This document shows positions 4,459 to 52,240 of a stretch of 64,000 bases of DNA, piece by piece. The translations under genes and the position numbers were made by a program. Each line of letters opens with the position of its first letter. Positions within the stretch are counted from its first letter, which is position 1. The notes beneath the pieces were generated by a model. It was not told the DNA's origin. It was given only the letters and a program-made list of their open reading frames with translations, and ran no database searches. The stretch is from a virus, in the IMG/VR virus record IMGVR_UViG_3300020048_000029, positions 1 to 64,000 of that record; one strand, given 5' to 3'.

Positions 4459-4469
4459 AAGGAGAAATC

Positions 4470-5114
4470 ATGTTTCTTATCAGGGGTAAATACCCGATCG
4501 ATACAATTGAGCAAGTAAAGCTTGCCTCAGAATACTTTGAAAACTACCTTTCAAGCTTTTCTCCTTCTGAAAAGATGTTGTCTGCAGCTCGCCTTGAAAA
4601 GCGTGCGGGAGAGCTTGGAACAACTCTTGTTGACAAAGCTTGGATTGTAACTTATTCACGCCCTCTTCTTAAAGAGGCGTCAGAATCTCCTGCTCTTTCG
4701 ACGCACATGAAAATGCGTAAGCTTGCTCTCGATTGCCACGGAGTTACAGAAGTTGAAGTTGACGGCAAAACTGTAAACGCTCTTGAGCTTATGAACAAGA
4801 TCGCTTCATCTGATGAAACAGTTTTTGAAAAGGTTCAAGGTCTTATCGCATTTGATAAGCTTGCTGGTTTAGACAACTCTTACAGCGACAGCTTGCCTGA
4901 CCCTGTAATGACCATTGCTGGATCTGCAATTAACCCGTGGTATGACGGCGTTAAAATGGCTGGAGACCTTACTCAGTACGACCTTAAAAAACTTGCCTGT
5001 GACAAAGATTTTACCGAGAAACTTGCAAGTGAAAATTTTGCCACTGATCCATGCGGTACTGTATATTCAATGAGTCCAGTAGAAAAGGAAAACTTTCTTA
5101 GACTCGTGGAGTAG
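4470..5114 (+). CDS. Hypothetical head-region protein (KYPIDT motif, repeated K[LI]A)
   Basis: RBS AAGGAG; lies just upstream of the portal-like gene. Confidence 0.55.
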   Translation: MFLIRGKYPIDTIEQVKLASEYFENYLSSFSPSEKMLSAARLEKRAGELGTTLVDKAWIVTYSRPLLKEASESPALSTHMKMRKLALDCHGVTEVEVDGKTVNALELMNKIASSDETVFEKVQGLIAFDKLAGLDNSYSDSLPDPVMTIAGSAINPWYDGVKMAGDLTQYDLKKLACDKDFTEKLASENFATDPCGTVYSMSPVEKENFLRLVE

Positions 5115-14273: not shown

Positions 14274-14286
14274 TTTACCGCCCTAT

Positions 14287-14318
14287 AAAAAAATGGGTAG
14301 GTTGAATACCTACCCATT
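14287..14318 (-). terminator. Intrinsic terminator
   Basis: AATGGGTAGG-loop-CCTACCCATT with a T-run on the minus strand. Confidence 0.7.
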
Positions 14319-14357
14319 GAATCTCTTGGTTGTTTCACTAAATCTCCATCAATATTA

Positions 14358-16552: not shown

Positions 16553-17177
16553 TTTTCTTCCTTTCAGAAATCACAAACTTTTTGATACCATTTTCGATCA
16601 TCATTCTTGACTTTGTAGTTTTGGAGTAGTCGAACCCAACAGAGTCAAAGTAACTCTTTGCAACCATGCATCTCAAAGAGCCGTTATGAGACGTTATCTC
16701 AAAAGTGTTCACATGATCTTGGTCGTTGAAAATGTAAACTATTCCGCTCGGCTTGTGGAACTCAATTGAAAGTCTGAAGTCTTTCGCAATGTTGTTAACA
16801 AACCAGCTTGTAACAGAAACATACCCGTACTTTGTTATTGTAACATGGTTCTTTTTAACTCGGCGAGCTCCGCTACCGACAATTCCGAACACTCTTACTC
16901 TGAACAGCTCGCCAGGTACGGCATGGGCGATACTCTTGTACCGCTCACATCTCTCCCCAACAAGCTCTTTACGACCGTGCTGAACACGGTCTCTGAACAC
17001 TTTGAACTTCTCACCGCCGTTATCAATTGACGACACTGATATCACCGGGCCAAGCCCTGGTTCTGGGATCATTTTCACAAAGACATAATCTCTCCCGATG
17101 AGAGATTTGTGTCTAAGGTAGTTACTCAACGTCATCGTCTTCTTCTCCACCGTAAGCAAGTTTTTCAATCTCGACAC
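16530..17177 (-). CDS. Basic hypothetical protein
   Basis: ORF fills the gap in the operon; start uncertain. Confidence 0.55.
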   Translation of the reverse strand: MSRLKNLLTVEKKTMTLSNYLRHKSLIGRDYVFVKMIPEPGLGPVISVSSIDNGGEKFKVFRDRVQHGRKELVGERCERYKSIAHAVPGELFRVRVFGIVGSGARRVKKNHVTITKYGYVSVTSWFVNNIAKDFRLSIEFHKPSGIVYIFNDQDHVNTFEITSHNGSLRCMVAKSYFDSVGFDYSKTTKSRMMIENGIKKFVISERKKIEKHIDV

Positions 17178-18498
17178 TTGTAAGCGCGTCGAATACGTTC
17201 TTATCCTTCATTACAACAGGAATCAATCCTGCAGCTTCCTTTTTCATGGCTCTTGACATTTTCACATCTTCGCCGGCAGGGAGGGCGTACAAATCCTTAA
17301 AGTCCTTCTCTTTTATCTGAAGTCTTGAAAGGATGTCCATTACTCCAACTCCTCTTTCCATGAGGATCCCGAAGCATGCGATACTGTCGATCTTTCGCTC
17401 TCTCTTGTTATGAGTCCCAAGGATTGCTACTTCGTCAATAGTAATCTCTCTCTTTGAAGCAAACGCCTTCACCTGAGAAGTAAGGGATTTAACCTCAGCT
17501 TTATCAGCCTCGATCCTCTTCCAAGCAGCGACACAACTCTCTTCATCAACAACTGTTATGTTCAGTGGGCCGGACTGATTTTTGATGAACAGCTTACAGC
17601 TTGTCTGAGCATAACAATTGCCGCAGTACTCATTCCTTTTAGGGCTGAAGCCTCCTGTGACGATCGCTTCCTCAGCTTTGTCAGCAATGCGCTTCACCCA
17701 TCCTCTTACGTCTTCAACCAATCCTTCGACTTCGCTCGGCAGAATCTCATAGACATCTTCTGTCGCGAACCGCAGATATTTGATAACGATCTTGATCGAT
17801 TCAACTTTTGTCATATCGAAAATTCTCGATGCAAATACAGCGTAAACTCTAAACTGGTAATCTTTTCTGAACTGATCCTTCGACATTTTTGTCCGGCTTG
17901 ACTTGTAGTCAGTAATTCGAATTTCACCGCCTCGGAAGTCGATTCTGTCAATTACACCTCTGAAGAAAACATCTTTCGCATCGTACTTTGTTGGAAGCCA
18001 GTCTTTAGTCATTCCGAATTTAAGCTCGAATGACGATGACTCCCCAGGGAAAGATTCGAAATTGTTCGTGTAAAAGAAAATTCTTGAGAACAACCGGATC
18101 TCGTCGATCAATGCTCCATCTGTTATGAACATGTCATTAAGGACACTGTCAACAATCTTGTTGAATGACGCCTCGTCTGGCATTCCGTAAATATCGTAAT
18201 CCCCGATGTCGGCAGCTTGCCTGATCATCTTGAACTTTTGGATGCCAAAGTATTTTGGGTCAAATTCTTCCGGAGCATCTTCGATATCCTGTGCGCCTAG
18301 CCACATTTTGTAAGCTGATTCAGTTGTCTTCTTCTCGCACCATTTCCCAGAAAGTTCGGCGACACTATGAAGAGCTGATCCAAGGGTGAAGTGAGCCGCC
18401 TCCTCCTTGATTCCGTCAATATAGGTCATCTTCCATTTTAAAGGGCACTGTGCAAACAGTTTCAGTCTGGATACCGAATAGATCATCGTTTCTTGCAT
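17122..18498 (-). CDS. RecB-like PD-(D/E)XK exonuclease
   Basis: YSVSRLKLFAQCP, GSALH, GVIDRID, ITDYKS, Q..VY, CGNC...C. Confidence 0.85.
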   Translation of the reverse strand: MQETMIYSVSRLKLFAQCPLKWKMTYIDGIKEEAAHFTLGSALHSVAELSGKWCEKKTTESAYKMWLGAQDIEDAPEEFDPKYFGIQKFKMIRQAADIGDYDIYGMPDEASFNKIVDSVLNDMFITDGALIDEIRLFSRIFFYTNNFESFPGESSSFELKFGMTKDWLPTKYDAKDVFFRGVIDRIDFRGGEIRITDYKSSRTKMSKDQFRKDYQFRVYAVFASRIFDMTKVESIKIVIKYLRFATEDVYEILPSEVEGLVEDVRGWVKRIADKAEEAIVTGGFSPKRNEYCGNCYAQTSCKLFIKNQSGPLNITVVDEESCVAAWKRIEADKAEVKSLTSQVKAFASKREITIDEVAILGTHNKRERKIDSIACFGILMERGVGVMDILSRLQIKEKDFKDLYALPAGEDVKMSRAMKKEAAGLIPVVMKDKNVFDALTSVEIEKLAYGGEEDDDVE

Positions 18499-19072
18499 TG
18501 TTCATCCCATTCATTGCAACATAACACTCAATACCTTTTAAGACGTCATAGGTTGCCCTGTGAGCCTCTTTTTTGTCAAACTTGATCTTTAGCTTACTGC
18601 AAGTAGAAGCAAGGTTGACGCGCCGCTGGTTGCCAAAAATCTCTCTCGCCATCAACATGGTGTCAAACACTTCAATCCCATTAGGATCAAGCCTGAGCAT
18701 CTCCATATCAAAGCCGATGTAATTATGGCCTCCATGACGCCTTCCATTGATGAACTGGTCAAGCATCTCTCTTATTCCGTCAGATAAGTAATTAGGCTTA
18801 CCTCTCACCATCATATTTGTTATTCCATTAATTGCGCTCGCATCACTAGGGATGTACCCATTTACAGGGCAGCATAGCGTGTAGAACTCTCTTCCAATTC
18901 CACCGCCGGCGTTGAACTCAATTGCAGATATTTCTATGATCTCAGTATCGGTAACCGATATCCCGGTCGTCTCCGAGTCGATGTAAACAAGGTCATACTG
19001 AGTCTCAAACTCTTCAAGAGTAACAAGTTTTTTGGTTCCAATGTTAGTAACAAGAGAGTCATACGATATCAC
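18416..19072 (-). CDS. DEDDh 3'-5' exonuclease (DnaQ-like)
   Basis: IDSETTG, GHNYIGFD, AHRATYDV. Confidence 0.9.
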   Translation of the reverse strand: MISYDSLVTNIGTKKLVTLEEFETQYDLVYIDSETTGISVTDTEIIEISAIEFNAGGGIGREFYTLCCPVNGYIPSDASAINGITNMMVRGKPNYLSDGIREMLDQFINGRRHGGHNYIGFDMEMLRLDPNGIEVFDTMLMAREIFGNQRRVNLASTCSKLKIKFDKKEAHRATYDVLKGIECYVAMNGMNNARNDDLFGIQTETVCTVPFKMEDDLY

Positions 19073-19358
19073 ACTGAACCCCGTTCTTTGACAGTATCTT
19101 ACCTAGCCTAATTATGTAGTAATTTACATAAGGTTCAGCTCCCCAGTCAATGAGTCCTAGGCCTTTTTTAACACTTTCAAATTCTATTACAAACCGAGGC
19201 GAATCTGGCGAGTACCCATTAACAAACTCAATTGCGTCATAGTGAGTCGCCAACCTCTTGTCCCAGTACGGTTTTATGGTTCGATACTCTTCAAGCTTCT
19301 CCCCGCTCAAGATCATGTCGAACCATTTTTTCTTGAGAGTCATTCTCAATATCTTCAA
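19059..19358 (-). CDS. ASCH-domain protein
   Basis: LKKKWFDMILSGEKLEEYR. Confidence 0.85.
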   Translation of the reverse strand: MKILRMTLKKKWFDMILSGEKLEEYRTIKPYWDKRLATHYDAIEFVNGYSPDSPRFVIEFESVKKGLGLIDWGAEPYVNYYIIRLGKILSKNGVQCDIV

Positions 19359-19623
19359 GTAATCCTCCTATAAATTCAAGAAAGACTTCTCTTTCGTCGT
19401 ACAATTTAAACTGTTCATCCGTCATTGGATACTTCTTCCAGATCTCAATGCCGACATGACTTATCTTGCCTTCGACACCACGATCTCCGCCTCTTGCATA
19501 TCCCATTATTCTCATTCGGTCACAAGAAAAAAGAGCATCGAATAGACGCCCTTTTTCTTCGAGAGATATTGAGTTGATATCAGGTATCAGGTGGCGGTTC
19601 TTTTCAGCCTCCTTTATTAGCAT
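19291..19623 (-). CDS. Hypothetical protein
   Basis: MLIKEAEK... within track ORF 19291..19707. Confidence 0.5.
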   Translation of the reverse strand: MLIKEAEKNRHLIPDINSISLEEKGRLFDALFSCDRMRIMGYARGGDRGVEGKISHVGIEIWKKYPMTDEQFKLYDEREVFLEFIGGLLEDIENDSQEKMVRHDLERGEA

Positions 19624-19990
19624 TGATAGCCTCCACAAGTGCTTCAAGCTTACCGATAACCTCATCAATATCTTGTTCAATGATGAGGATTGTCTTTTCT
19701 TTTTCAATTTCTGCGCACAGCTTTTTTATGTGATCGCATCTTGACAGTAGGTTCACATATTTACTGTAAGCTTCAGAGTTGTCAACGCCTTCACGTTTTA
19801 CAGTTAGACCCCCTCCAACCCTCCCGCCATTGCTTTTTCTGTACCCTACATCGCCCAAGTAGAACGTATTCTTCAGCACTTTTGTAACTTCGATTCCAAC
19901 TGTAAATCTTTTTGCATATCTACTGTAAACCGATTATTTTACAAGCTTGTCAACGTACACGATATCGCCAACTTTTACATCTGAAAACAT
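19604..19990 (-). pseudogene. Hypothetical gene interrupted by an in-frame TAA
   Basis: MFSDVKVGDIVYVDKLVK*SVYSRYAKRFTVGIEVTKVLKNTFY...; stop at 19934-19936, in frame with track ORF 19604..19879. Confidence 0.55.
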
Positions 19991-19995
19991 ATAAC

Positions 19996-20190
19996 CTACA
20001 ATTCTGACAATTTGTTCTTGAACTCTCTACCGCAGTCAATGTATTCGGAGAAATTGCTATCTCCAAGCGAGCTGTCCTCCTTCATTCGGACTTCGAAACT
20101 TCTCAGCCCTTCTCCTATAACGGCACCTAAATAGTGCGCTTCAATCTTTGAAAACTCTACATGAAGAGTCTTTATCACATCTGATTTCAT
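19996..20190 (-). CDS. Small hypothetical protein
   Basis: Packed ORF with GGAG RBS. Confidence 0.55.
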   Translation of the reverse strand: MKSDVIKTLHVEFSKIEAHYLGAVIGEGLRSFEVRMKEDSSLGDSNFSEYIDCGREFKNKLSEL

Positions 20191-20192
20191 AA

Positions 20193-20396
20193 TTACTCCA
20201 ATTCATTTATCGAAAAGCCTTGGTCGCGAAGGAACTCCGCGATAATTTCTTTGCGCTCGTTTTTAGGCCTTTTTTTATCAGGAGTGAAAATCTCCTCCAT
20301 GTTTGTGCGGCCATCAACGATGTGCCAAACAATTACTTTTCTGTACGATTGCTTCCCAAGGATGCTGCACGGAAGCTTGTAAGCTTTAGTTTTCAT
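20193..20396 (-). CDS. Small hypothetical protein
   Basis: Packed ORF with GAGG RBS. Confidence 0.55.
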   Translation of the reverse strand: MKTKAYKLPCSILGKQSYRKVIVWHIVDGRTNMEEIFTPDKKRPKNERKEIIAEFLRDQGFSINELE

Positions 20397-20591
20397 TTAT
20401 GCCTCGCTGCTTAATTCATTGATCTTTCTTAATAGATCTGCTTTTTCTCGCAGGCGCTGTTCCAACATTGCAATAGCCTCTCTGTCATCCATTGCCTCCG
20501 CTTTCAAGCGTCTAACTTCCCTTTGAAGCTCATCTCTCTCGCGAAGGTATTTCTGCTCTTTTGTTTCTTTTGACATGTCGAATCCCTTTCG

Positions 20592-20777
20592 CTACTTTAA
20601 TTTCCAACCATATATTGTGTCTCCAAATGCAGTCACACCGTCTTTTGTCAGCACCCCAACATCAGTTATATCAAGCACTTTTCGCCACCCGTTAGCGGTT
20701 TTTATTTTTTGGCCAATAGCTACTGTTTTTCCAAGCTTGAACGTCACAATAAACTCCATTGTTATTTTCCACCACAT
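20592..20777 (-). CDS. Small hypothetical protein (cassette-associated)
   Basis: Begins in or just after repeat element R1. Confidence 0.5.
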   Translation of the reverse strand: MWWKITMEFIVTFKLGKTVAIGQKIKTANGWRKVLDITDVGVLTKDGVTAFGDTIYGWKLK

Positions 20778-20822
20778 AACTGTGGCGACGATCGGTAATA
20801 CCGACCGCCACCTTAATCTTTA
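20772..20822 (-). repeat. attC-like intergenic element R1 (shortened)
   Basis: TAA-AGATTAAGGTGGCGGTCGGTATTACCGATCGTCGCCACA-GTTATGT. Confidence 0.6.
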
Positions 20823-21221
20823 TTTTGATTTAATCACAAAATCCACAAAATCACGAAAAGCATCGCTGTAGGCAACAGCGTTTACCGGATCACAATACCA
20901 CCAGCTTTTGTGTTGGTGAATGACCTCGGGAACGTAAACGAGCTTATTGCATCGTTCAAGATCTCGATCAAAATCGTGTGTGTTTTTGTCATACGGGATA
21001 GGATCAGTTGAAGAAAAAATATCAGAAAGCAGATTGAACCATAGAATACAATACAATTTGTATTCTGTTCGTTCCGTACCCTTCATTTTTTCATAATCCA
21101 TTGGTTCCAATTCATTTTCAAATTTTGCGTATTGCAATGACATCATGTTCAAAGTGAACAATTTTTTAGAAACACCACTAGAGTGTTTTTTCATTCTACT
21201 CATACTACCTCTTTCTGCCAC
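20820..21221 (-). CDS. Hypothetical cassette gene
   Basis: Between R2 and R1; likely start MSRMKK about 21203. Confidence 0.6.
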   Translation of the reverse strand: MAERGSMSRMKKHSSGVSKKLFTLNMMSLQYAKFENELEPMDYEKMKGTERTEYKLYCILWFNLLSDIFSSTDPIPYDKNTHDFDRDLERCNKLVYVPEVIHQHKSWWYCDPVNAVAYSDAFRDFVDFVIKSK

Positions 21222-21278
21222 ATAACCGTGGCGGTTGGTGATGATCAGAAATACCGACCACCACCTTAATCGTTACTT
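21220..21278 (-). repeat. attC-like intergenic element R2
   Basis: AAGTAAC-GATTAAGGTGGTGGTCGGTATTTCTGATCATCACCAACCGCCACG-GTTATGT; upstream stop codon lies inside TAAC. Confidence 0.7.
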
Positions 21279-21548
21279 TGATTCTACAATTTTACACGCA
21301 TAAAAATACGCATTCAAATAATCCTTCATCATCACGACATCGTCTTCGTCTTCCATAAATATTTCATTACAGAAAGATGTCACATTCGCTTCAGAGTTAA
21401 GTATCTCAATGATGATCTCATATTGCCGATCATACTCTTCTCGATCCTCACATTCGCTCCGTGGAACAATATGGATCGTGAGCAATTTTGCGATCTTTTT
21501 GATCTGTGCATTTGTAAAATCTGATCGTTTAAATTTCTTTAGTTTCAT
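21273..21548 (-). CDS. Hypothetical cassette gene
   Basis: Between R3 and R2; RBS AAGGA. Confidence 0.6.
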   Translation of the reverse strand: MKLKKFKRSDFTNAQIKKIAKLLTIHIVPRSECEDREEYDRQYEIIIEILNSEANVTSFCNEIFMEDEDDVVMMKDYLNAYFYACKIVESK

Positions 21549-21552
21549 GTTT

Positions 21553-21837
21553 TCATCCTTTCTTTACAACCTGCTGTTTGGCGGTGGCTTTCGCACCACT
21601 CAACCACACTAACAGGTCGTTATAACCCCATGAAATTTCTTCTAAACCACGGAAGAAAATCACCCTTAATTTCAGTTTCAATGAAAACGCTTCTGGCTTC
21701 TTTAATAAGCTCATCTTTGTTTTCAATTCTGTCAAAATAACTCTAATATCTGACGGCAAAAGAATCGAACAAACATCATCACGTCTTGCCAATTCTTGAA
21801 TTTCACTTATCGTTTTTTCGCCAATACTAAGTACCAT
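21553..21837 (-). CDS. Hypothetical cassette gene (reads through R3)
   Basis: MVLSIGEK... after RBS AGGTAGGAAG. Confidence 0.5.
   Translation of the reverse strand: MVLSIGEKTISEIQELARRDDVCSILLPSDIRVILTELKTKMSLLKKPEAFSLKLKLRVIFFRGLEEISWGYNDLLVWLSGAKATAKQQVVKKG
21564..21625 (-). repeat. attC-like element R3
   Basis: TTATAAC-GACCTGTTAG...GCGAAAGC...AAACAGCAG-GTTGTAA. Confidence 0.6.
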
Positions 21838-21854
21838 ACTTCCTACCTTCTGCC

Positions 21855-21909
21855 ACATAACCGTGGCGGCTGCGGTGGCTGAATACAGCCCCACACCTTG
21901 CTGTTATAC
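21855..21909 (-). repeat. attC-like element R4
   Basis: GTATAAC-AGCAAGGTGTGGGGCTGTATTCAGCCACCGCAGCCGCCACG-GTTATGT; 22 nt identical to R2. Confidence 0.7.
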
Positions 21910-21923
21910 TTGAATCAAATTAT

Positions 21924-22103
21924 TTACGGAATACGACCTTCATCCCATCCGTAAGTTTCCTTAAGTCCATCCCATTCTGAATTGCTGTCAATTAGTTTTG
22001 ACAGAATTTCATTCAAAAACCACTGTTTGTGATGTGCTCCATCAGTAGTAAGCCCATCAAGTGCGAGAGAAACTATCTCTTTTTGAGTTCTTCGCTCATA
22101 CAT
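21924..22103 (-). CDS. 59-aa phage protein with DGAHHKQW motif (not in ORF track)
   Basis: MYERRTQKEIVSLALDGLTTDGAHHKQWFLNEIL...WDEGRIP; ATG embedded in the GTTATG of R5. Confidence 0.7.
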   Translation of the reverse strand: MYERRTQKEIVSLALDGLTTDGAHHKQWFLNEILSKLIDSNSEWDGLKETYGWDEGRIP

Positions 22104-22159
22104 AACCTGTTTCGTTGGGTGGTGACGGGAAATACCCGCACACCACGCAGTTGTTATTT
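22100..22159 (-). repeat. attC-like element R5
   Basis: AAATAAC-AACTG-CGTGGTGTGCGGGTATTTCCCGTCACCACCCAACG-AAACAG-GTTATGT. Confidence 0.7.
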
Positions 22160-22372
22160 AAGACCTCTTAATTGTTCACGACTCACATGTTCCCAGTTTT
22201 CGGGATAGTGATTTTCCTCTTTGTTAAATCGTCTTACCCACTGTTCAACGAGTTTCTTTCTGCCAATTGTTGTTCGCTTGTATTCATTCCAGCATTTAGG
22301 GCATCGCACAAATTCCCAAAAATACCAAAACTCATTATTCCCGCATTCGCATGTCATTGATTCTTCCATCAA
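22154..22372 (-). CDS. Small Zn-ribbon cassette protein
   Basis: CECG...CPKC; stop inside the TAAC of R5. Confidence 0.6.
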   Translation of the reverse strand: MMEESMTCECGNNEFWYFWEFVRCPKCWNEYKRTTIGRKKLVEQWVRRFNKEENHYPENWEHVSREQLRGLK

Positions 22373-22524
22373 TCTTCTCCTCTTTCTTGCTCTCCACTTT
22401 GATTCATTAGTTCGTTCACCTTAAACATCAGATAGCCAACTGCTTCTGCGTTGGTCATTTCCATTCTGCTATACTTCTCTACAAGATCAGTCAGATCGTC
22501 GTAGAACTGATCACCTAATACCAT
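22369..22524 (-). CDS. Small hypothetical cassette protein
   Basis: MVLGDQFYDDL... after R6 and RBS AAGGTGG; track ORF 22369..22602 overextends through R6. Confidence 0.55.
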   Translation of the reverse strand: MVLGDQFYDDLTDLVEKYSRMEMTNAEAVGYLMFKVNELMNQSGEQERGED

Positions 22525-22538
22525 TGTTCCACCTTCCC

Positions 22539-22594
22539 ACATAACAAGTTTGGTTCGTGTGACCGAGTACGGCACACGAACCAGGTCGTTATAA
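22539..22594 (-). repeat. attC-like element R6
   Basis: TTATAAC-GACCT-GGTTCGTGTGCCG-TACT-CGGTCACACGAACC-AAACTT-GTTATGT. Confidence 0.75.
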
Positions 22595-22705
22595 TTTTGC
22601 ATCTATCACTTTGATAAGCCAATCAATTTCGTCTTTCGACAAATTTCCACCTTGATAAAACCTTCTCTGAATTTCTCTGAATTTTTCCCAGTCTGCTTTT
22701 TGCAT
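22589..22705 (-). CDS. 38-aa cassette micro-protein (not in ORF track)
   Basis: MQKADWEKFREIQRRFYQGGNLSKDEIDWLIKVIDAKL; RBS AGGTAGGA; stop in R6. Confidence 0.55.
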   Translation of the reverse strand: MQKADWEKFREIQRRFYQGGNLSKDEIDWLIKVIDAKL

Positions 22706-22720
22706 ACTATCCTACCTTCT

Positions 22721-22779
22721 GCTCCATAATGGAGCGTTTGGGGATGACGGGAATACCGCTCACCAACTTAATACTATAA
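22721..22779 (-). repeat. Degenerate attC-like element R7
   Basis: TTATAG-TATTAAGTTGGTGAGCGGTATTCCCGTCATCCCCAAACGCTCC-ATTATGG; alignable to R2. Confidence 0.55.
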
Positions 22780-23091
22780 CCCTTTGTATATCATAACTTT
22801 GTCATTTTCGAGTATAACATCTGATTTTTCGCAATTGTGTCTTCTTGCCACACTCGAAATATACCCGTCAAGCTCCTTTTTAGTGTCACTCAATTCTTCT
22901 TCAAGACGCTCGCATTTTGATTTGTAATCAATACTTTCCTCTGATCTTCCGCCGATCATGTCAAATCCCATTCCTGACAATGCGTCAGAATTTTCTTTGA
23001 TCGCTTTTGCAAACTCAGTAGTTTTTTCTCTGTCTAAGCATATCCCAAAGTGCGGAAAAACTTCTTCGCAAAAAATTACCCATTCATCCAT
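22774..23091 (-). CDS. Hypothetical protein
   Basis: 105-aa ORF ending at R7. Confidence 0.6.
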   Translation of the reverse strand: MDEWVIFCEEVFPHFGICLDREKTTEFAKAIKENSDALSGMGFDMIGGRSEESIDYKSKCERLEEELSDTKKELDGYISSVARRHNCEKSDVILENDKVMIYKGL

Positions 23092-23093
23092 CG

Positions 23094-23363
23094 TTATCCA
23101 ACCTTTTCTAAAAATTTATCAAAATTGCCCCAATTAATTTCACAGATAGCTATAAACAGTTGCTGGTTTTCCTGCTCTCCCCAAGCGTGATGAGTTAATG
23201 CGTCTCCGCATAAAGACCCCTTCATTTGCTCTTCAAGAAAGAGGACGACATCTTTTTCACTGTATTTTATCTCTTCCGACAATTCTCTTTTGATATGCCG
23301 ACTTCTCATATTTCCTTCTTTCTGACTGGCTACATCCAGCCATATTACAGTGGTCTTCGGCAC
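23094..23363 (-). CDS. Hypothetical protein
   Basis: Packed ORF. Confidence 0.5.
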   Translation of the reverse strand: MPKTTVIWLDVASQKEGNMRSRHIKRELSEEIKYSEKDVVLFLEEQMKGSLCGDALTHHAWGEQENQQLFIAICEINWGNFDKFLEKVG

Positions 23364-23375
23364 TGAATCTGTTTC

Positions 23376-23681
23376 TTATTTTGATTTAAAGTGATCTTCA
23401 GATACTAATACTTGTGAATCTTCTCTGTATCGAAGGCTTTCACCTATTAAATTAGCAATATCTTCTCTAATACACTCATCAGAACTTTGCTTACCATCAG
23501 ACAAGTACCAGTCGATTAAGTGACCTATTTCGTGAAAAATACTTTCGCTTAACTCAATAGTATTTAATCCTTTAGTTATTACAATCTTATTACACTCATT
23601 AGGATAATACACTGTAGCAAGAACATCTTTATTATGCAAAGATTCTTTTATTTCTATATCTATTTCAAGACTAAGTTTCAT
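23376..23681 (-). CDS. Small HExxH metallopeptidase-like protein
   Basis: IFHEIGHL...EDIAN; visibly AT-rich. Confidence 0.55.
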   Translation of the reverse strand: MKLSLEIDIEIKESLHNKDVLATVYYPNECNKIVITKGLNTIELSESIFHEIGHLIDWYLSDGKQSSDECIREDIANLIGESLRYREDSQVLVSEDHFKSK

Positions 23682-23691
23682 TGTACACCTT

Positions 23692-23750
23692 TCATAACAG
23701 CATGTGTTGGTGAAGATGTCGCACCTCCACTCACCACGCGGCTGTTATTT
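23692..23750 (-). repeat. attC-like element R8
   Basis: AAATAAC-AGCCGCGTGGTGAGTGGAGGTGCGACATCTTCACCAACACATGCT-GTTATGA. Confidence 0.7.
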
Positions 23751-23954
23751 TTATGTTTCTAATTTCAAATTGTCCTCAGAAAACGGTCTTGTTTCGCCAC
23801 TTCCGAGAGTAACGGCAAAAACAGAACAGTCATCATTGTGTCCAATAGTCGAAAGAATGTTTACTATAGTCCCATGGTCAAACACTTTCTTTTTTATTTT
23901 ACCCTTTTTAACTTTATGATCACGAAGTACTGCTACCCGATCTCCAATTTCCAT
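23751..23954 (-). CDS. Small SH3/KOW-like hypothetical protein
   Basis: MEIGDRVAV...GTIV...; RBS GAGGAG. Confidence 0.55.
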   Translation of the reverse strand: MEIGDRVAVLRDHKVKKGKIKKKVFDHGTIVNILSTIGHNDDCSVFAVTLGSGETRPFSEDNLKLET

Positions 23955-24143
23955 AGTCGTCTCCTCTGGTTATGATGCCGTGTACAAACAACGGGATCGT
24001 TATTTTGAAAGTTCATTAATAATAAGTATTATAACCCCTAATATGACACCTCCAGAAGACCCGCTCTGAGGCAGCCAGAACTGATACCGCTTTGCTTCTT
24101 TTGAAAACCACTTTTTTAACATAGCTACTCTCATTGCTTCGCA

Positions 24144-24365
24144 TCACTCGCACAATTCATGTGAGCGTTGTAATTCCACCCATATAATTCCATCGCAGCT
24201 GTGATCAGTTGCTTCGTCTATCTCTTCTGGGGATATGCATCCGCCAGAGCCATCGGTAAACGAACAGCCTTTGCAGCAACCATTTGTAGCAACAGACTTG
24301 TACTGCTTGTCTTTGTATGTTGCTACAACTCCTACTATATTAACCATGTCGTTTCTTTCTCCCAT
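24144..24365 (-). CDS. Small Cys-rich hypothetical protein
   Basis: CCKGCSF...C...C; starts at R10. Confidence 0.55.
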   Translation of the reverse strand: MGERNDMVNIVGVVATYKDKQYKSVATNGCCKGCSFTDGSGGCISPEEIDEATDHSCDGIIWVELQRSHELCE

Positions 24366-24426
24366 AACAGTCTCCGCTTGCTATGATCTCCTGGCGCCTC
24401 GTAAGCACGCAGCGGTCAAGTTATAA
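24361..24426 (-). repeat. attC-like element R10
   Basis: TTATAAC-TTGACCGCTGC...GCAAGCGGAGACT-GTTATGG; stop in TAAC. Confidence 0.65.
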
Positions 24427-24648
24427 TCGTTGATTCCATTTTTCTGATATGCTAAACTGCAACCATTCAACATCATACCTAACAGTACTTTGCGACATTT
24501 TAACTTTACACTCTTGACATTCGATTTCAATTATTCTCTTTTTTGCGTGATTGTTTCCTATCTGCGTAATAGTTGGTTCATTACCACAAAAAGGGCATAC
24601 ATCCAAAACTACGAAATCCGACAACTCAGAGCCTTGGTATACAGCCAT
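24421..24648 (-). CDS. Lar-like (restriction alleviation-type) Zn-finger protein
   Basis: CPFCGNEP...CQEC...WNQR. Confidence 0.6.
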   Translation of the reverse strand: MAVYQGSELSDFVVLDVCPFCGNEPTITQIGNNHAKKRIIEIECQECKVKMSQSTVRYDVEWLQFSISEKWNQRL

Positions 24649-24714
24649 TTATAACCTTTCCGTTTGGTGCTGATGTGCTCGCATTACTCGCAAACACACC
24701 AACTATCCATTATC
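24649..24714 (-). repeat. attC-like element R11
   Basis: GATAAT-GGATAGTTGGTGTG...CAGCACCAAACGGAAAG-GTTATAA. Confidence 0.55.
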
Positions 24715-24955
24715 ATTTGCTTCTATTATTTTTTATATCCACATGAACTACAACGCTGCCATCGTTATATATCATGCGATAGATGTTAGTCACCATGTAG
24801 CTATCGATTCTTGCTGTAACGGACAATATATCTTCACGATTATCACAATTCTTAAAACAGACATCTTTCCCGATACTTGGTAATAACGATTCTCGATATT
24901 CGCACTCAAAAATTGTTTTTATATTTGAGGTGTCGAAGAACTTTATAATATCCAT
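24713..24955 (-). CDS. Hypothetical protein
   Basis: RBS AAGGA; ends at R11. Confidence 0.55.
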   Translation of the reverse strand: MDIIKFFDTSNIKTIFECEYRESLLPSIGKDVCFKNCDNREDILSVTARIDSYMVTNIYRMIYNDGSVVVHVDIKNNRSK

Positions 24956-25004
24956 AATTCCTTCTTTCTGCTATTACTGTTGGAGATGTCACGCGCATCG
25001 CTAT

Positions 25005-27635
25005 TTACACATACTCCCAGTGGTCACTGTTTTCTAAATATCCAATTTCACCATTACTAAGACTAACGGCGACAAGCATCCCGTAAAAAGATCTCGGGTC
25101 CTTGCTCCGCCAGTCTACACTCAACACTTTCCCTGTTAGGCTTACGTACTGACCTTTTACAAACAGCAATTCATCGCCTACTGACACACTTGATTTTTGT
25201 TTCATTGATATTTTCCTGTCGATCTAACTTATCAATTCTTTATTGACCTTTTTAATTTCATCTTTCGATAAACCCCACTGATCAAAAATTTCATGTTTTC
25301 TTTCCGCAACTTGGTGTACAGACTCACAAAACTGCGAGCAAGATCCGCGGCATGATTTGTCAACTCCAACACCATTGCTGCCACCACAATGCTCAAAGTC
25401 AGCTCCCCATACTATGCGCCCGATGTATGTCTTTAAGCAATGCACGACACTTCACCGGTAGTGGCAGCTTGATCAAATTCTGTTGCCAACAAAAACGAGT
25501 CATTCCTTTTAATTATCGCAGTACCCCAAGGAACCATCATTACGATCCCGTCAATGCACAGGACTACACCCTCTTTTGGTTTTGATATCCACTTTTCGTA
25601 AATACCATCAGTGTCTTTAGTACCGGTAAATTCCATAGCTCTTTTTACGCTATGAGAGCTCATTTTGAGCACTACAAACTTATTATTGTCTATACCTAAC
25701 ATTATCTCTCCATTGCTCCTGTTTTAAAGTTGTCCATGCTTTCAATGTATTCGCTTAGCGTGCTATAAATCTTATCCTTAACAGTGTCGCAGTCGCGCAT
25801 GTATTCCTCAATGTCATCCTGAGAAGCACTTGCAGCCTTCTCGAATTCGTCATAGTAACGCGACGCTTTTGTTATGGCCTCAAGCGTGCAGTCAGATACT
25901 TGAACAGCCGTAAATCTCAGGTTTTCATTTACGAATATTCCTGCATCGTACCATGTAAAATTTATGTCTCTTTTTATCGAGTTAATGTAGCCAATTGTCA
26001 CTTCTGAGTAATGAATAGGGAGTACTATAAATTCTTCAGATGTGTGAGTTGACTTATTCACTCCGTCAATTTTCATAGATAGATCGACAGAAACTCTTAC
26101 AAGCGATAGATCGCCATCGTCATTAATGTCGTGGTCAATTTCTTTTGCAGCTTCAACGAAATCCATCGATTTATATCTACCAAGTGGTATACTTCTAACC
26201 CTTCCAAACAATTCAAAGCAGAATTGTTTATTAAGCCCTTTTAAAAAGTTGTAGTATGTTTTGAACCACTCCATTTTAAACATCTCGCGATTCTCTTCTA
26301 AGAACGCATCAAGATCCGATTTAAGATCTTCTTCAATCATCATAACCCCTTTTTACAATTTTATGTTGTACCGCTCAGCAACTTCATGAATAAAATCTTC
26401 TAAGCCTACAATCTCCCACAGCTCGTTAATATCGCCAACATTGTGGACGATTCTAATCGCTTGTTCATTTGTAACGCCGAACTTATCGGCAAATTCTGAA
26501 ATTCTTTCTGCTATGAATTGATCACGCCTCGACATGATCTTCGCACTGCTTCAGAATCAACTGCACTTGTTCATACCGCTTAACCGCCTCTTTGTAGAGC
26601 CGCTCCTTTTGATCCATATTGCTCCATGCCAATGTTGATTGAAGCTTGTAAAATGCTTTTCGAGCTTCATTCTTTGACGTGAAATAATCGCCTTTAACAA
26701 AGTCCTGCAGCCCTGATGAGTGTTCAATGAAATCTTCGTCAACAAGCTCAACGAACACTATTGACGATCTTCTGACATCAAGAACACACTCAATCCTTCC
26801 GCAGGATCCGACACTATGCGTCGCCTTTGTTGTAATCTGAGAATACCCATCATATTGATGAACTCCGACAACTTTGTGCTCAATAATATCAAGAGAGCAC
26901 GGGTGCCATACTAAGTCTCCAACTTTTATTTTACTCATTCTTTTGAATCCTTAAAATTTAGGTTGATATACTGTCTTTCAGATTCGTAATCATCGTCCCG
27001 CACGACCTGGCTTAGCGTGTCAGTTCCTTCATACTCATTCTTATTGTGGTCAAACAATGCCTGGACAGCAGCCTGGTGCTCTGGGCGATCACTTAATGAC
27101 TTGAGCATCCTGTCGAACATAGATAGATACGTGTCATCTCTGTTAATCTCAAAATTGAAAAGTTCAGAAACATGTTGAAGGTAATCTCTGTGATTTTTCG
27201 GCTCTGTTGAGCTGCCCAATACTATGCAAACTTTCATTGTTTACTCCACTTCTTCAAATTCAAGGAACGCATTAGTTTTTGAATTAAAAACGGTTGGCTT
27301 AATGCCGATACCAAACCCGTGATTTACTGGCAGGTCAGCAGGCAGCTTTTGCAATTCAATAATCAACTCTCCTACTGTTTCGCATTCTTTCAGCTCTAGT
27401 ACATTTTCAAGTTTCATCATCTTGCCTTTGTTAAAAAATTGACATCACTTTTTGATCCGTTTGAGATTGCAAAACAAATCGATTCGCTAATTGACAGGCT
27501 CTTTAAGTGTCTGCCATCAGTATTTGAGATTAGTCTCGGAGCCCCTTTGTATGGCAGCATAAGTAACGACTCACTGTTCCCGCAGATGTAATTTGCACTG
27601 GTTGACAGTAGAACTTTTTGGTTTGGAACGAACAT
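25005..27635 (-). other. Run of small hypothetical genes (25005-25205, 25224-25445, 25433-25702, 25702-26343, 26353-26535, 26522-26938, 26935-27237, about 27241-27420, 27417-27635)
   Basis: Abutting or overlapping co-oriented ORFs with RBS-like sequences; no recognisable motifs. Confidence 0.6.
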
Positions 27636-27690
27636 AACTTCCTCCTTTGTCCGTACACACTTGTTATTACAGAATGTGTACGGATGTAAC

Positions 27691-27930
27691 TTATATCAAG
27701 TCAATGTCTTTGTATCCTGCATAGACATAAAGATCGTGCCCTGCATTTTCAAAGACAAGAGCGGTTGAATTCTGTCTTATCGTTGAGCCAATCACAATAT
27801 CTTTCTCTGGAAGATATGTCCCGTGGACAAATTCAGCCAAAGACTCAGAAGATCCTTCCCAGTAATCGCCAACACTAAAGCAGCTTGCAAAGTTACCTTG
27901 CCAACCCTGTTGAGTAATCCGCTTATTTAT
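27691..27930 (-). CDS. 79-codon ORF in frame with rtcB, lacking an ATG start
   Basis: Frame stays open after the rtcB TGA: (S)INKRITQQGWQGNF...AGYKDIDLI. Confidence 0.4.
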   Translation of the reverse strand: MNKRITQQGWQGNFASCFSVGDYWEGSSESLAEFVHGTYLPEKDIVIGSTIRQNSTALVFENAGHDLYVYAGYKDIDLI

Positions 27931-27933
27931 ACT

Positions 27934-29034
27934 TCACCCCTTGATGTTAATAATCGGCTTGACATGACAAACAACTTCAACAAGATCCTCCTGAAGTCTC
28001 ATGACTTCAAAGATGTCCTTGTAAGCCTTCGGCGACTCGTCAAGAAGTTCGACGCCAGTTCTCGCAGTAATGCCAGCCATCATATCCTGGAACTCACCGT
28101 AGTTCAAATCCTTTGCAGCTTGAGCTCGGCTCATAACTCTTCCGGCCCCATGAGAGCTTGAGTAAAGCGAGTCAGGATTCCCCTTTCCTTTTACAATGAA
28201 GCTTCCGTCACGCATATTTCCTGGAATTACTCCCATCATACCTTCTTCGGCGTGAGTAGCGCCCTTGCGGTGAATCCACAGCCCATCCTTGAGTTCGGCA
28301 TGGTTGTGGTTTCGATTTATCATGTCTCCGCTTATCGGATAATCATCCCCAATAATATCTCCGATAGATACCATTACAGAGACTATAATCTTAACTCTGT
28401 TCTCAAGAGCAAAATCAAGAGTGAAGTTCAAGTCGTTAATGTAATTTTTTCCATTTTCACTATCGACATCGAACCCGTAGAAACCTTCAGAAGCTTTTCC
28501 GTTAGGAGAGGCAAGCTTCATGTAATGTTCGGCGATACCATGGCCAAATCCGCGAGATCCGGAGTGAACAATTATCCAGACGCGATCGCTTTCATCACAC
28601 CCTATCTCGACAAAGTGATTGCCTCCACCGAGCGTTCCAAGCTGTGTCAAAGCCTTCTTCTCTTCTGCTATCGCTAGACCTTCAGGAGTTAGTCGTGAAA
28701 AGTCAAGTTTTGATATGCAAGGCTCAGCATGGTGCTTGAATCCAACCGGGAGATTTTTATAGATCTGATTCATGATGCTTAGAGAGTTTTCTCTTATCGC
28801 ATCAGCATCGTAAGATGTTGCTACTGCACACATTCCACAGCCTATGTCGAATCCTATATATGATGGGAACACATGGTTTTTAGTTGCTATTACAGATCCG
28901 ATAGGGATCGTGTACCCAGTATGAGCATCTGGCATTAATGCTCCTTTTACTGTGTACTCGTTGTCCATAGCTTCCATGAACTGCTGAAGAGCTTTTGGCT
29001 CGAGCACTTCCGCGTAAATTTTATAATCTTTCAT
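27934..29034 (-). CDS. rtcB: RtcB-family RNA ligase
   Basis: LMPDAH, DIGCG, LGTLGGGNHF, HSGSRG, HNH, HRKGAT, SHGAGR, DESPKAYK. Confidence 0.95.
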   Translation of the reverse strand: MKDYKIYAEVLEPKALQQFMEAMDNEYTVKGALMPDAHTGYTIPIGSVIATKNHVFPSYIGFDIGCGMCAVATSYDADAIRENSLSIMNQIYKNLPVGFKHHAEPCISKLDFSRLTPEGLAIAEEKKALTQLGTLGGGNHFVEIGCDESDRVWIIVHSGSRGFGHGIAEHYMKLASPNGKASEGFYGFDVDSENGKNYINDLNFTLDFALENRVKIIVSVMVSIGDIIGDDYPISGDMINRNHNHAELKDGLWIHRKGATHAEEGMMGVIPGNMRDGSFIVKGKGNPDSLYSSSHGAGRVMSRAQAAKDLNYGEFQDMMAGITARTGVELLDESPKAYKDIFEVMRLQEDLVEVVCHVKPIINIKG

Positions 29035-30969
29035 TTTTTCTCCTTCAAGTATTCATTGCACATCTCTGCTATCTTTTCAACGCTTGTGCAGTGAGCAGCG
29101 TTTCTCACATGTTTCAAGCCCTCTTCTAGTCTCAAGATTCTCTTTTTGAGTTTATCGATTTCATCGCTTGGCATTTTCAGCCCCACATTCTTTGCAAAAT
29201 TTGAATGGAACCATTTCATCAATGCTGCGACCTTGATCAACATCATACTCTGTAATAAGCTCTCCATATATAATCCCTATCGTATGACCGCCAACATTAT
29301 GAGGGCAACTATACTTCTTCTTGCCAATCGCATCTTCGCAAAGTTTTACAATACCTGGCCGGTTGTTGAGGGTTGCAAACTCATTGATTTCCTCAATAGT
29401 TTCAATCAGTCTATCAGCCAATAAAGACCTTGCTTGTAAATACTCATTATCTCTGAAAATGCACTCAACACTTTCAAGTGTGAACTTCGTGTAGATGGTG
29501 TACCCATCTTCATTTACATAGCACAACTTTCTCATGACCTAAGTCCTTTCTCAAACTCTTCTGTGAGAGCTATCTTTGTTCTTACATAATTATGGATCTC
29601 GTCAGGTAGCGGTTGATAGGTTATCCATGTACCATCATTGCATACCCAAATGACTGTTTCACCTTTGTTGTAACCCTTGCAAGCTTCTTCAAGGTACTCA
29701 GGGATCTCCAGCTTATGATTAATGAACATCTCCATTAGGTCCGCAGGAGAAGCATTTGAGCAGTGCCGGCCCTTGCATGCCAACTCCACCTCATACATGT
29801 ACTTGATATCATGCAGGAGGTCGAAGCTGTAAGGGAGAGGAGTCATATCATACTCACGGTTCTGTTCTGCGATCTGTTCTTCCATAAACTCTTCCCAATC
29901 CTCAATGATACGTATAAGCAGTATACCCTCATAAGTATAGAGCTCAGGCTGACCACCGAATGTATTCATCTTAGCCGCAACAGAGTTGGACTCGTATCTG
30001 TAGGAAATTTTCTCCTCAGGATGCTTTTCTGCCCAAGCCTTTGCTCTTGCAATAAAGTTCTCGTATTGATCTTTCATCTAACGTACCCGACGAGTTGATA
30101 GGACTCGACCCAAGCCTTTTCGCAACTGTAACACGAACATTGATTATACAAAGACGATCCAGAGATGGTATGTTCGCCTTCAGAACTTATGTTTAGTGAT
30201 CCACAGAATGGACATTCATCCGGCGATTCGACATACTTTTCATTGCTGCGAGGGAACTCATGTTTAATCGCGTCGAAAGTTGAGAGAGGTTTGAAGATTG
30301 GTATAAAGCCATTTTCTTCAACACCTGTCGCCACCAGTATTTCGCTCCAAAAGTTTCCGAATAGGTATTCCACATTCATCTTTTCCGCAGGAGAAATAAA
30401 TGAACATTCGCAGTCCCTTTTAACTAATGCTCCTGGGTTAGCATTAGCCCAATCGATAGCCTGTTCACCATTGCTTATTTTAGACATTTTTGCTCCTCGT
30501 ATTCTGCTATTTGTCTGGATATTGCGCTCAGCGCAGCATTGCGAACTTCGTATGAAGCTCTTAGGGAAGTCATGACAATATCAAGTTGTCTTTCAACAGG
30601 AAGACCCTTGATTGATTCGTGCATCCTTTCGCACATAAGCTTTATGTCAAGGATGAATTCATCACTAAGCTGCATGTTACTGAGTAGAGAGCTTTCCACT
30701 GCGTACACGTAAGATGCGACTCCACCTTCTTTGCTGATGCTACCACCCAATACTTCTCTCATGTTAAGTATCCTGTAGTCTATGATCATGTGAATGTCGT
30801 TTTTATCCATCAAACTTGTTTTACCCATGTCGTCTATTAGGTGCATATAATAGCTCTCCGGGTTTTTCAGGTTGCTTCCAGCCTTCTTCACGTTATACGA
30901 ATGCATTACAGTTCCAACTCTGCTGTCATGGAAAAGAACCTGAAATTCAACGTCTAATTTTACCTTCAT
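29031..30969 (-). other. Small hypothetical genes (29031-29267, 29161-29535, 29532-30077, 30074-30487 with CPFC..CYSC Zn finger, 30475-30969)
   Basis: Translationally coupled ORFs. Confidence 0.6.
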
Positions 30970-30981
30970 GAAATCTCCAGA

Positions 30982-30999
30982 GCGGGAATTTCTTCCCGC
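30982..30999 (-). other. GAAA-tetraloop hairpin upstream of an RBS
   Basis: GCGGGAA-GAAA-TTCCCGC on the minus strand; no U-tract. Confidence 0.5.
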
Positions 31000-31010
31000 G
31001 GATTGAGTTG

Positions 31011-31520
31011 TTAAGAAAGCTTTAGCTCATCGCCTTCTTTTATTTCTTTCAAATCTGATTCGAGCTTCGCAATTATTTCCATTGCGCTCTTCATGTCGTC
31101 GAAGCGTAGTCTTGCTCCTGAGACTGCCATTTTCAGATACATTACAACAGCCATTTGCACGGCTGGCGGCATCGTAAGACTTACCTCCCGAACTTCTTTT
31201 CGAACCGTTACTGTAGGGTTCTCTTTCATAAGAACATCTTCAACTTCAACGATCCTTGCCTTGTATCTCTCCTCAATATCGATAAGCATCTTGTCTTGCT
31301 TTTCGACATCTTCTTGCATTTTTCCCATGGTGTACCTGACAGCAGACAACTCGTCTCTGGCTTCATGCAGCTGACTAGATACCAAATTGAAGGTCAACTG
31401 TCTTGATCTCTCTTCTCTTTCGTAAGAGCTGCGCTCATCTTTAAGGCTGACCGATTTCTCGTACAGCTTAAACGCAAGGATTACCACTAAACAAAAAAGG
31501 AACACAATAGCGCTATACAT
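31011..31520 (-). CDS. N-terminally membrane-anchored coiled-coil protein
   Basis: Hydrophobic AIVFLFCLVVILAF followed by a heptad region; RBS AGGAG. Confidence 0.65.
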   Translation of the reverse strand: MYSAIVFLFCLVVILAFKLYEKSVSLKDERSSYEREERSRQLTFNLVSSQLHEARDELSAVRYTMGKMQEDVEKQDKMLIDIEERYKARIVEVEDVLMKENPTVTVRKEVREVSLTMPPAVQMAVVMYLKMAVSGARLRFDDMKSAMEIIAKLESDLKEIKEGDELKLS

Positions 31521-31530
31521 ACAAACTCCT

Positions 31531-31560
31531 AAAAAAATGGGAGCGCGATTAAGCGCCCCC
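31531..31560 (-). terminator. Intrinsic terminator
   Basis: GGGGCGC-TTAATC-GCGCTCCC-ATTTTTTT on the minus strand. Confidence 0.75.
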
Positions 31561-31565
31561 TGTAA

Positions 31566-32654: not shown

Positions 32655-32672
32655 AACAACTTTCTTAAAATG

Positions 32673-32700
32673 AAAAGGCCCAGCAACATAATTGCCGGGC
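32673..32700 (-). terminator. Probable intrinsic terminator
   Basis: GCCCGGCAA-loop-TTGCTGGGC-CTTTT on the minus strand. Confidence 0.6.
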
Positions 32701-32723
32701 CAGGTACGGTATCTGCATTAAGA

Positions 32724-37411: not shown

Positions 37412-37427
37412 TACTTTTTTCTCCGGT

Positions 37428-37457
37428 TAAAGGGGGCGGTACTTTCGTACCACCCCC
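37428..37457 (-). terminator. Intrinsic terminator
   Basis: GGGGGTGGTAC-GAAA-GTACCGCCCCC-TTT on the minus strand. Confidence 0.7.
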
Positions 37458-37463
37458 ATAGTT

Positions 37464-52094: not shown

Positions 52095-52240
52095 ACACTC
52101 TCAGGCTTCGAGAGAGGGCCGTGAGCATCGGTTAAAGTAAAAACACATACCTAGGCAGCAAAAAATAAAATCAAGGGCCTTAAACAGCCTCTTTCGCGTT
52201 CGAAACTAAAATCAAATACTGTTTCTCATTTTTTGAATAT

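Follow-up and report, generated by a model that had tools for sequence, protein, structure and literature searches.

What separates the small genes of this phage: sites at which a recombinase shuffles gene cassettes, or structures that act in the messenger RNA (mRNA)? The question is raised by an array of related hairpins in an uncultured phage, represented by the IMG/VR record IMGVR_UViG_3300020048_000029 (G000 below), a virus record of 152,686 bp that CheckV rates as about 84% complete. The first 64 kb of this record are the window analysed here, and coordinates refer to it unless another source is named. At 20.77-25.0 kb, twelve related hairpin spacers of 50-65 bases, ten of them good and two decayed, lie between minus-strand genes. 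An earlier note on this DNA had interpreted them as attC-like sites of an integron-like cassette array.

In the present analysis, the elements resemble mRNA connectors that ordinary recombination has put to a second use more than they resemble genuine integron sites. Compensatory base changes, stop codons inside the ATAAC word at one end, and Shine-Dalgarno (SD) motifs or ATG codons at the GTTATG word at the other end suggest an mRNA connector with a second use as a recombination patch. The same family occurs in a second phage (G001), whose complete genome of 65,795 bp encodes RecT, an exonuclease and a polymerase, and in a close relative of the latter (G002; 30,318 nt). It is with moderate confidence that we regard the elements as mRNA connectors between small early or accessory gene units, which also act as patches for the exchange of these units. 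This RNA-level alternative, which the earlier note had itself named, is at least as well supported as the integron.

Hairpin spacers with fixed end words

Read on the gene-sense strand, the elements run from (A)TAAC through 0-7 nt into an imperfect hairpin of 8-16 pairs, and from there through a tail to GTTATG. The 5' arm of the hairpin is G/T-rich, the loop is often TATT, the tail mostly contains CCAA(A)C, and none of the elements has a T-run. Parsed anew, they come closer to attC than a plain hairpin would: between TAAC and GTTA lie, in this order, 4-7 nt, a helix, a variable top, a helix with A(A)C at its end and another 4-7 nt, which gives two nested inverted repeats with AAC/GTT ends. The ten elements and both remnants listed in the earlier note are all present where it had placed them, and its description of the layout (TAAC, spacer, imperfect stem-loop, spacer, GTT, and no U-tracts) holds on the gene-sense strand.

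A filter that combined TAAC..GTTAT with a fold yielded 13 hits genome-wide (6 loci, both strands), 10 of which lie inside 3.2 kb where shuffles predict about 0.15. The matches of an nhmmer profile built from 14 copies were confined to the array within the 152.7-kb record, BLAST retrieved no further copy in G000, and a search of the 64-kb window against Rfam families, which include no attC model, gave 0 matches at the gathering score. MAFFT and RNAalifold applied to 10, 14 and 8 copies produced no consensus fold, with the stems out of register; in place of a covariance model, the nhmmer profile, a descriptor scan, pairwise mapping and a hand-given structure for a six-copy subfamily were used.

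The individual copies, all on the minus strand, keep this plan to different degrees. E1 (20773-20822) has a TAAAG variant of the 5' word, a 13-bp hairpin with 3 G:U pairs and GTTATG, and is 91% identical to the 5' half of E2. The latter (21221-21277) begins with GTAAC, whose TAA is the stop of the upstream gene, and continues with a 12-bp hairpin and with a tail and GTTATG that lie within a 5-bp mini-hairpin. E2 is a mosaic, being E1-like in its 5' half and identical to E4 in its 3' 21 nt, and is 78% identical to an element of G001. E3 (21565-21624) forms a long, nearly continuous hairpin and has a decayed 3' word (GTTGTA); the 94-aa open reading frame upstream of it (21553-21837, minus strand) does not stop in the 5' word but continues across the entire element and terminates 2 nt ahead of the next start. 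E4 (21856-21908) consists of ATAAC, a hairpin with a TATT loop, and GTTATG in a mini-hairpin. In E5 (22101-22158), the upstream gene stops at the TAA of ATAAC and the next gene has its sole start at the ATG of GTTATG; the body of the element is related to an extra element of G002. E6 (22540-22593) reads ATAAC, 4 nt, a 14-bp hairpin, 5 nt and GTTATG. The words of E7 (22723-22782) are decayed to ATAG and ATTATG, and its mini-hairpin around ATTAT differs from those of E2 and E4 by two compensatory pairs. E8 (23693-23749) has ATAAC, a 15-bp bulged hairpin and GTTATG, followed by an SD motif and an ATG 12 nt on. E9 (24363-24425) matches the G001 element at 54046-54107 with 81% identity over 63 nt; in E9, a Lar-like gene stops at the TAA of ATAAC, and GGAG together with the ATG of GTTATG forms the start of the next gene. 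E10 (24648-24709) carries a 14-16-bp hairpin, a CCAAAC tail and GTTATA. Of the two remnants, the one noted earlier near 23970 (E11, 23954-24003) is a shortened copy of the G001 element at 64541-64604 and matches the profile weakly, and the one near 24960 (E12, about 24956-25004) is decayed, its hairpin almost gone and its tail resembling those of E2 and E4.

These elements form a class separate from transcription terminators, because canonical hairpin-plus-T-run terminators occur elsewhere in G000. Ordinary terminators, with a perfect GC-rich hairpin followed by a T-run, were seen between co-directional genes outside the array, both in the window (37412-37463, 31521-31565, 14274-14357 and 32655-32723) and at positions 75648-75697, 106945-106991 and 107265-107326 of the record.

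Stop, start and the stronger-folding strand

Across 17 elements from two phages, the sense strand folds better than the antisense strand. With RNA parameters the mean gap amounts to -3.5 kcal/mol (p=0.004); with DNA parameters it shrinks to -1.06 (p=0.04). In E10, the two strands fold with -21 (sense) versus -8 kcal/mol (antisense). The sense strands contain 30 G:U pairs versus 14 in the antisense strands, whose single-base mismatches are mostly C/A. In both phages the stronger-folding strand is the gene-sense strand, and the bias consistently follows gene direction.

As the earlier note had observed, the stems vary while their pairing is kept. A comparison of homologous elements revealed 10 double and 11 single changes that preserve pairing, alongside 16 broken pairs. 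The six-copy subfamily (alignment A6) shares a long-range helix of the form CCGT...A(A)CGG. Four of its seven pairs are changed on both sides, and 88% of the cells are paired as compared to 25-44% when the arms are slid against each other, a value that shuffles did not reach.

The ends of the elements coincide with signals of translation. In 11 of the 17 elements, the upstream gene actually ends at the TAA of the 5' word, in line with the remark in the earlier note that the stop is often the TAA of TAAC. Among the eleven window elements scored for stop and start (E12 was left out), this applies to E2, E5, E6 and E9 with TAAC and to E1 with TAAAG. At the other end, where a ribosome-binding site or ATG had been reported to follow GTTAT, an SD motif or ATG indeed follows or overlaps GTTATG: GGAG and the ATG of GTTATG are the likely start region in about 7 of the 17, and otherwise an SD motif and ATG are found within 12-24 nt. 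An in-frame ATG in GTTATG despite a later start, seen in 4 of 9 cases, is not above chance.

These features suggest how a connector could work. Acting in the minus-strand mRNA, it would begin at the stop of the preceding gene (the TAA in ATAAC), would immediately form a G:U-rich hairpin that lacks a T-run, and would end in a single-stranded or weakly paired tract that contains the ribosome-binding site of the next gene and, in many cases, its start codon (the ATG in GTTATG). In the six-copy subfamily, the covarying long-range helix is predicted to pair the strand that follows the stop with the strand that carries GGAG and ATG; because of this pairing, a ribosome finishing the upstream gene would open the start site of the next one, resulting in translational coupling. 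The stable apical hairpin could in addition protect the upstream message at its 3' end, or mark that end, much like the RNase III sites between the early genes of T7. We infer that RNA is the active form, that its role lies in coupling or protection, and that exchange of the units is driven by homology.

RNase III sites of T7 early genes were reportedly described by Dunn and Studier in 1983. The array elements resemble such T7/T3 sites in being 50-60-nt two-helix hairpins with an internal loop, which are homologous among themselves and lie, without a T-run, between a stop codon and the next ribosome site of a polycistronic early message. They differ in that their lower helix has just 5 bp, and no phage-encoded RNase III was found. 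To our knowledge, T7 RNase III sites are not known as module boundaries common to unrelated phages.

Exchange between phages and comparison with integron sites

The elements lie at the boundaries of gene modules and are transferred from phage to phage. G001 shares no features with G000 except the elements and two weak protein matches, and the genes that flank the elements are non-homologous. (A weakly shared protein, encoded at 43108-43764 of G000 and 3837-4592 of G001, has no Pfam family.) The six copies in G001 are located on the early or replication strand, and one of them lies between the genes for RecT and the exonuclease, a functionally linked pair. Cross-phage pairs of element bodies score well above the shuffled null and comprise E9 and the copy at 54.0 kb, E2/E4 and the copy at 64.9 kb, E11 and the copy at 64.5 kb, and E5/E7 and the extra copy of G002. 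Homologous elements in the two phages are 78-81% identical, and several sequence subtypes are common to both. At four cross-phage element pairs, the flanking proteins showed no similarity on either side at E<=1. What looks like an inverted copy of E4 in G001 (5861-5913) results from a loop that differs within a palindromic stem.

An exact 18-mer from E2/E4 matched one IMG/VR record, namely G001, and exact-word scans of viral contigs found no carriers beyond G001 and G002; an exact-word match in L093/L096 was rejected as a chance match. With the G001 DNA polymerase as query, no further close relative was retrieved. Discrete homology that is confined to the element in otherwise unrelated phages, the conserved inverted ends, and the presence of several subtypes in both phages would also be expected of small repeats, either selfish or of host origin, that insert at TAA sites between genes in phages of one host, comparable to repetitive extragenic palindromic (REP) sequences or miniature inverted-repeat transposable elements (MITEs) with 5-bp terminal inverted repeats. 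Such an origin is very unlikely nonetheless. An exact 19-mer of the commonest tail gave merely two chance matches, in coding sequence, among 185,579 species genomes, no instance was seen in which the element alone is present or absent, and no transposase was found. The elements are moreover integrated with stop codons, SD motifs and start codons, and their strand bias follows gene direction.

G001 and G002, the sole pair of close relatives available, are 98.7-99.7% identical over shared blocks and differ in three places. At 54.05 kb, G002 carries 432 extra bases, which comprise one hairpin body with GTTATG and SD motif and two genes; the first encodes 55 aa, and the second, a DUF7446 gene that overlaps it, has its TAA within a second ATAAC. 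Both junctions of this indel fall inside the 5-nt word ATAAC, and the hairpin that remains in G001 is the downstream one. Because a two-gene unit has been gained or lost exactly at a spacer, the elements mark swappable modules. That array-type elements sit at the boundaries of exchangeable units is supported by this single indel, which concerns G001 and G002 rather than G000, and by the sharing between phages. The DUF7446 gene (L092:2484-2690, minus strand; Pfam E 2.6e-20) is the only element-adjacent gene besides the Lar-like one that belongs to a curated family. In the two remaining places genes have been replaced, with a repeated ribosome-site word or a start codon at the boundary, so exchange at short conserved intergenic words seems to be general in that phage. 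Homology resumes at the same ribosome-site word, AAAGGGGGATAGTATG, at 48545-48565 and 52213-52228 of G001 (L088), which makes it a further boundary of recombination.

By analogy, the closest known counterparts of the elements are the PeSL (promoter-early stem-loop) cassettes of T4-type phages. PeSLs are intergenic motifs that extend from stop to start, contain a G:T-paired stem-loop and lie in ORFan-rich variable regions; a unit flanked by a pair of PeSLs in one phage corresponds to a single motif in a close relative, and no dedicated recombinase is involved (PMC2839356, PMC4122927). The array elements share the composite order of upstream stop, G:T-paired stem-loop, SD motif and start, the clustering among ORFans in a variable (hyperplastic) region, the indel unit between two motifs (432 nt between two ATAAC words, in the single case of G001 versus G002), and the lack of a dedicated recombinase. 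Unlike PeSLs, they have neither a sigma-70-type promoter nor the T-run of a terminator, they possess conserved 5-nt inverted words (ATAAC/GTTAT) and a covarying long-range helix, their host phages are not T4-like, and the family spans two phages without common genes.

Strict punctuation of the PeSL type, in which a terminator or attenuator hairpin plus a promoter would make each unit its own transcription unit while the shared sequence drives homologous exchange, fits the position, composition and setting of the elements, including the stop, the G:T stem-loop, the SD motif and start, the ORFan-rich region and the element-bounded indels (PMC2839356). It is quite unlikely all the same, as sigma-70-like promoters are neither enriched (18 seen versus 22 expected) nor tied to elements, and a T-run is absent although G000 uses T-run terminators elsewhere. 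Furthermore, the two phages differ in gene content apart from the two weak protein matches, and a shared promoter would have to be that of the host.

If the elements are mRNA connectors, general or short-homology recombination between them could delete, insert or swap units, either within one genome or between co-infecting phages. The units would be exchangeable because every unit has the same words at both ends, and such recombination would account for the mosaicism of elements, for their occurrence in an unrelated phage and for the indel of two genes.

How far, then, does the comparison with integrons carry? In attC sites, the bottom strand shows a G:T excess and a lower folding energy and is cut in the 5' AAC, and the order of the parts is that of nested inverted repeats with AAC/GTT ends (PMC5027507). 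Clusters of attC sites without an integrase (CALINs) have been shown to work in virulent phages (PMC9892861). Like attC sites and CALINs (PMC5027507, PMC9892861), the array elements combine, within 50-65 nt, AAC...GTT words in inverted order in most copies, unpaired spacers of similar length in part of them, a second helix and a variable top; they also have a G:T excess on one strand, a stop codon in the AAC word and co-directional small gene units. They differ from attC in polarity: the array elements fold better on the gene-sense strand, whereas the recombined strand of attC is the bottom strand, antisense to the cassette genes. Breakpoints had been anticipated at GTT in the earlier note, but the G001/G002 junctions lie inside the 5' ATAAC, by the preceding stop, whereas the attC boundary lies between the G and TT of GTT, by the following gene.

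The fine structure corresponds in part. ATAAC and GTTAT are present in most copies, but the RYYY and RRRY positions of the attC consensus (RYYYAAC/GTTRRRY) are not followed (for example, WWAT precedes AAC). Where attC has an unpaired central spacer of about 5-6 nt per arm ahead of the L box helix, spacers of 4-7 nt on each arm occur in E4, E6, E7, E8 and the CCGT..ACGG subfamily, but in E2, E5 and E10 the two are unequal (3-6 versus 10-12 nt). A bulged A on the 3' arm was found in five or six related copies, with a bulge on the 5' arm or none elsewhere, and the extrahelical G and T that attC carries at a distance of six pairs, on the arm facing the cleaved AAC, were not found. Complementarity beyond the 5-nt core is absent within the element and across the gene, and a gene-site linkage is likewise lacking.

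The absence of an integrase from the window, stated in the earlier note, extends to the whole G000 record, and a tyrosine recombinase or HUH enzyme, for which the earlier note had proposed a search elsewhere in the genome, was not found there. A search for PF00589 tyrosine recombinases, in which all control genomes gave matches, detected none in G000 (about 84% complete), G001 (complete) and G002. Y1 HUH enzymes were not found in these three either, and serine recombinases were not found in G000 and were not searched for in G001 and G002. Of the proposed cassette system, the function of the elements as boundaries of gene modules is supported, as seen in the G001/G002 indel and the sharing with an unrelated phage, but the integron mechanism as defined is not supported.

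A reversed form of the site could accommodate part of these deviations. The elements might be folded single-stranded DNA (ssDNA) sites of attC type with inverted polarity, cut between ATAA and C by a recombinase from the host or another element, the cassette consisting of the site and the genes that follow. With the gene-sense strand as the one that recombines, strand bias, bulge and indel junction would fit together: the G:T excess and lower energy would then lie on the strand with the 5' AAC, as on attC bottom strands, and the nested order of the repeats would match as well (PMC5027507). Similar sites next to unrelated genes in two unrelated phages would fit a shared cassette pool, and the phage-borne attC clusters that lack an integrase (PMC9892861) provide a precedent. 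We nevertheless consider this explanation rather doubtful. In addition to the missing recombinases, the very unequal spacers of several copies, the bulges on either arm or none, the disregard of the RYYY/RRRY consensus and the lack of complementarity past the core, its polarity would be contrary to that of every described integron. A single cut site should also stay linked to one flank, but the four cross-phage element pairs have no homologous flank gene; mosaic elements have their breakpoints between hairpin and tail, and the covarying mini-hairpin places GTTAT in a loop. The indel that would favour the reversed site is a single one. Unlikely, too, is the broader scenario in which unrelated lytic phages sharing a host draw from a common cassette pool, through ssDNA sites that are cut between ATAA and C by a non-phage recombinase and double as translation-start regions.

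For mRNA connectors reused in recombination speak, besides the folding and translation signals, the RecT and exonuclease encoded by G001 in which no tyrosine or Y1 HUH recombinase was found, the position of one G001 element between the RecT and exonuclease genes, the mosaic elements, and the ribosome-site words that bound the replacements in G001/G002. The location of the array in a lineage-specific region recalls the PeSL-rich hyperplastic regions of T4-type phages (PMC2839356, PMC4122927). Several observations weigh against this explanation. The outer helix of ATAAC and GTTAT has 5 bp and is invariant, which leaves its pairing without support from covariation, and in four or five copies, including E2, E4, E7 and one of G001, the loop of a local 5-bp hairpin contains GTTAT instead. 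Both words are retained even where 12-24 nt separate them from the start codon, as a recombination core would need but an RNA role not obviously. Strand bias by itself is no proof that the elements act as RNA, since attC bottom strands show the same G:T excess and lower energy (PMC5027507). A junction inside the 5-nt ATAAC is exactly what a site-specific cut predicts, whereas homology-driven exchange would produce it with moderate probability. Finally, RecT was not found in G000.

Gene neighbourhood and wider significance

The genes of G000 are uniformly encoded on the minus strand from 14 to 52 kb. Within this part, a lineage-specific (hyperplastic) stretch of about 40 genes lies between core genes at 19059-31520 (minus strand), and the array fills 4 kb of these 12.5 kb. 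The stretch was delimited by comparison with 75 loci of distant relatives, which share the adjoining exonuclease (about 30% identity), RNase T-like gene, helicase and 362-aa gene. No gene between 19,059 and 31,520 has a homologue in these loci, but the flanking genes do (32-74 loci). The scan of genome and relatives that the earlier note had proposed, carried out with nhmmer, detected the array in G000 but nothing in the 75 loci, which contain neither a copy of the element family nor a comparable array upstream of the exonuclease. Near-identity and protein searches of GenBank phages gave no near match, and the helicase is less than 28% identical to any record. The flank proteins are 99% identical to those on a near-identical contig of 70,997 nt.

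The array itself contains about 17 small genes (20592-25205, minus strand), in units of one to three between the elements, almost all of which lack a known family. The exceptions are the Lar-like zinc-ribbon gene (24421-24648, minus strand) and a gene for an HExxH metalloprotease-like protein (23376-23681, minus strand), both of which the earlier note had correctly listed among the accessory genes between the elements. Genes within a unit abut, the elements occur solely between co-directional genes, and neighbouring genes without an element between them abut or overlap.

On the other side of the boundary at 19 kb, PD-(D/E)XK and RNase T-like exonucleases are encoded by two overlapping genes in G000 (17122-19072, minus strand), and by one fused protein of 670-720 aa in most relatives. 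Several distant relatives have a hairpin in the gap just 3' of the exonuclease gene, with the loop word CCCCGAGG or CCCGAGG (L011:11471-11515; L050/L067/L068:11459-11530; L051:841-899; L053:512-566; L056:564-624). It may represent a hairpin that binds a protein and is conserved in that clade.

Two further features were noted in G001 and G002. Where the homology of G002 to G001 ends (G001 46674), G002 has a run of closely spaced TGCAAC words over about 70 nt (reverse-complement coordinates about 21970-22040, L094/L095), which may represent iterons, an origin or a promoter region. G001 also encodes a protein of 2912 aa (L086:7624-16362, minus strand) without a PHROG match, the size and position of which recall the virion RNA polymerases of N4-like phages.

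The mechanisms by which phages gain and lose small accessory and anti-defence genes have been detailed for very few lineages, mainly through PeSLs and a handful of attC clusters. A compact family of connectors with fixed end words, common to two phages that share essentially no genes, provides a concrete, testable example, from outside the T4 group, of modular exchange mediated by 'linkers'. It raises the question whether the fixed AAC/GTT words are an RNA clamp between stop and start or the cut site of an enzyme. If they are an RNA clamp, the array would be a tidy example of structure-based translational coupling that is reused as a recombination handle; if they are a cut site, the concept of the integron would be widened.

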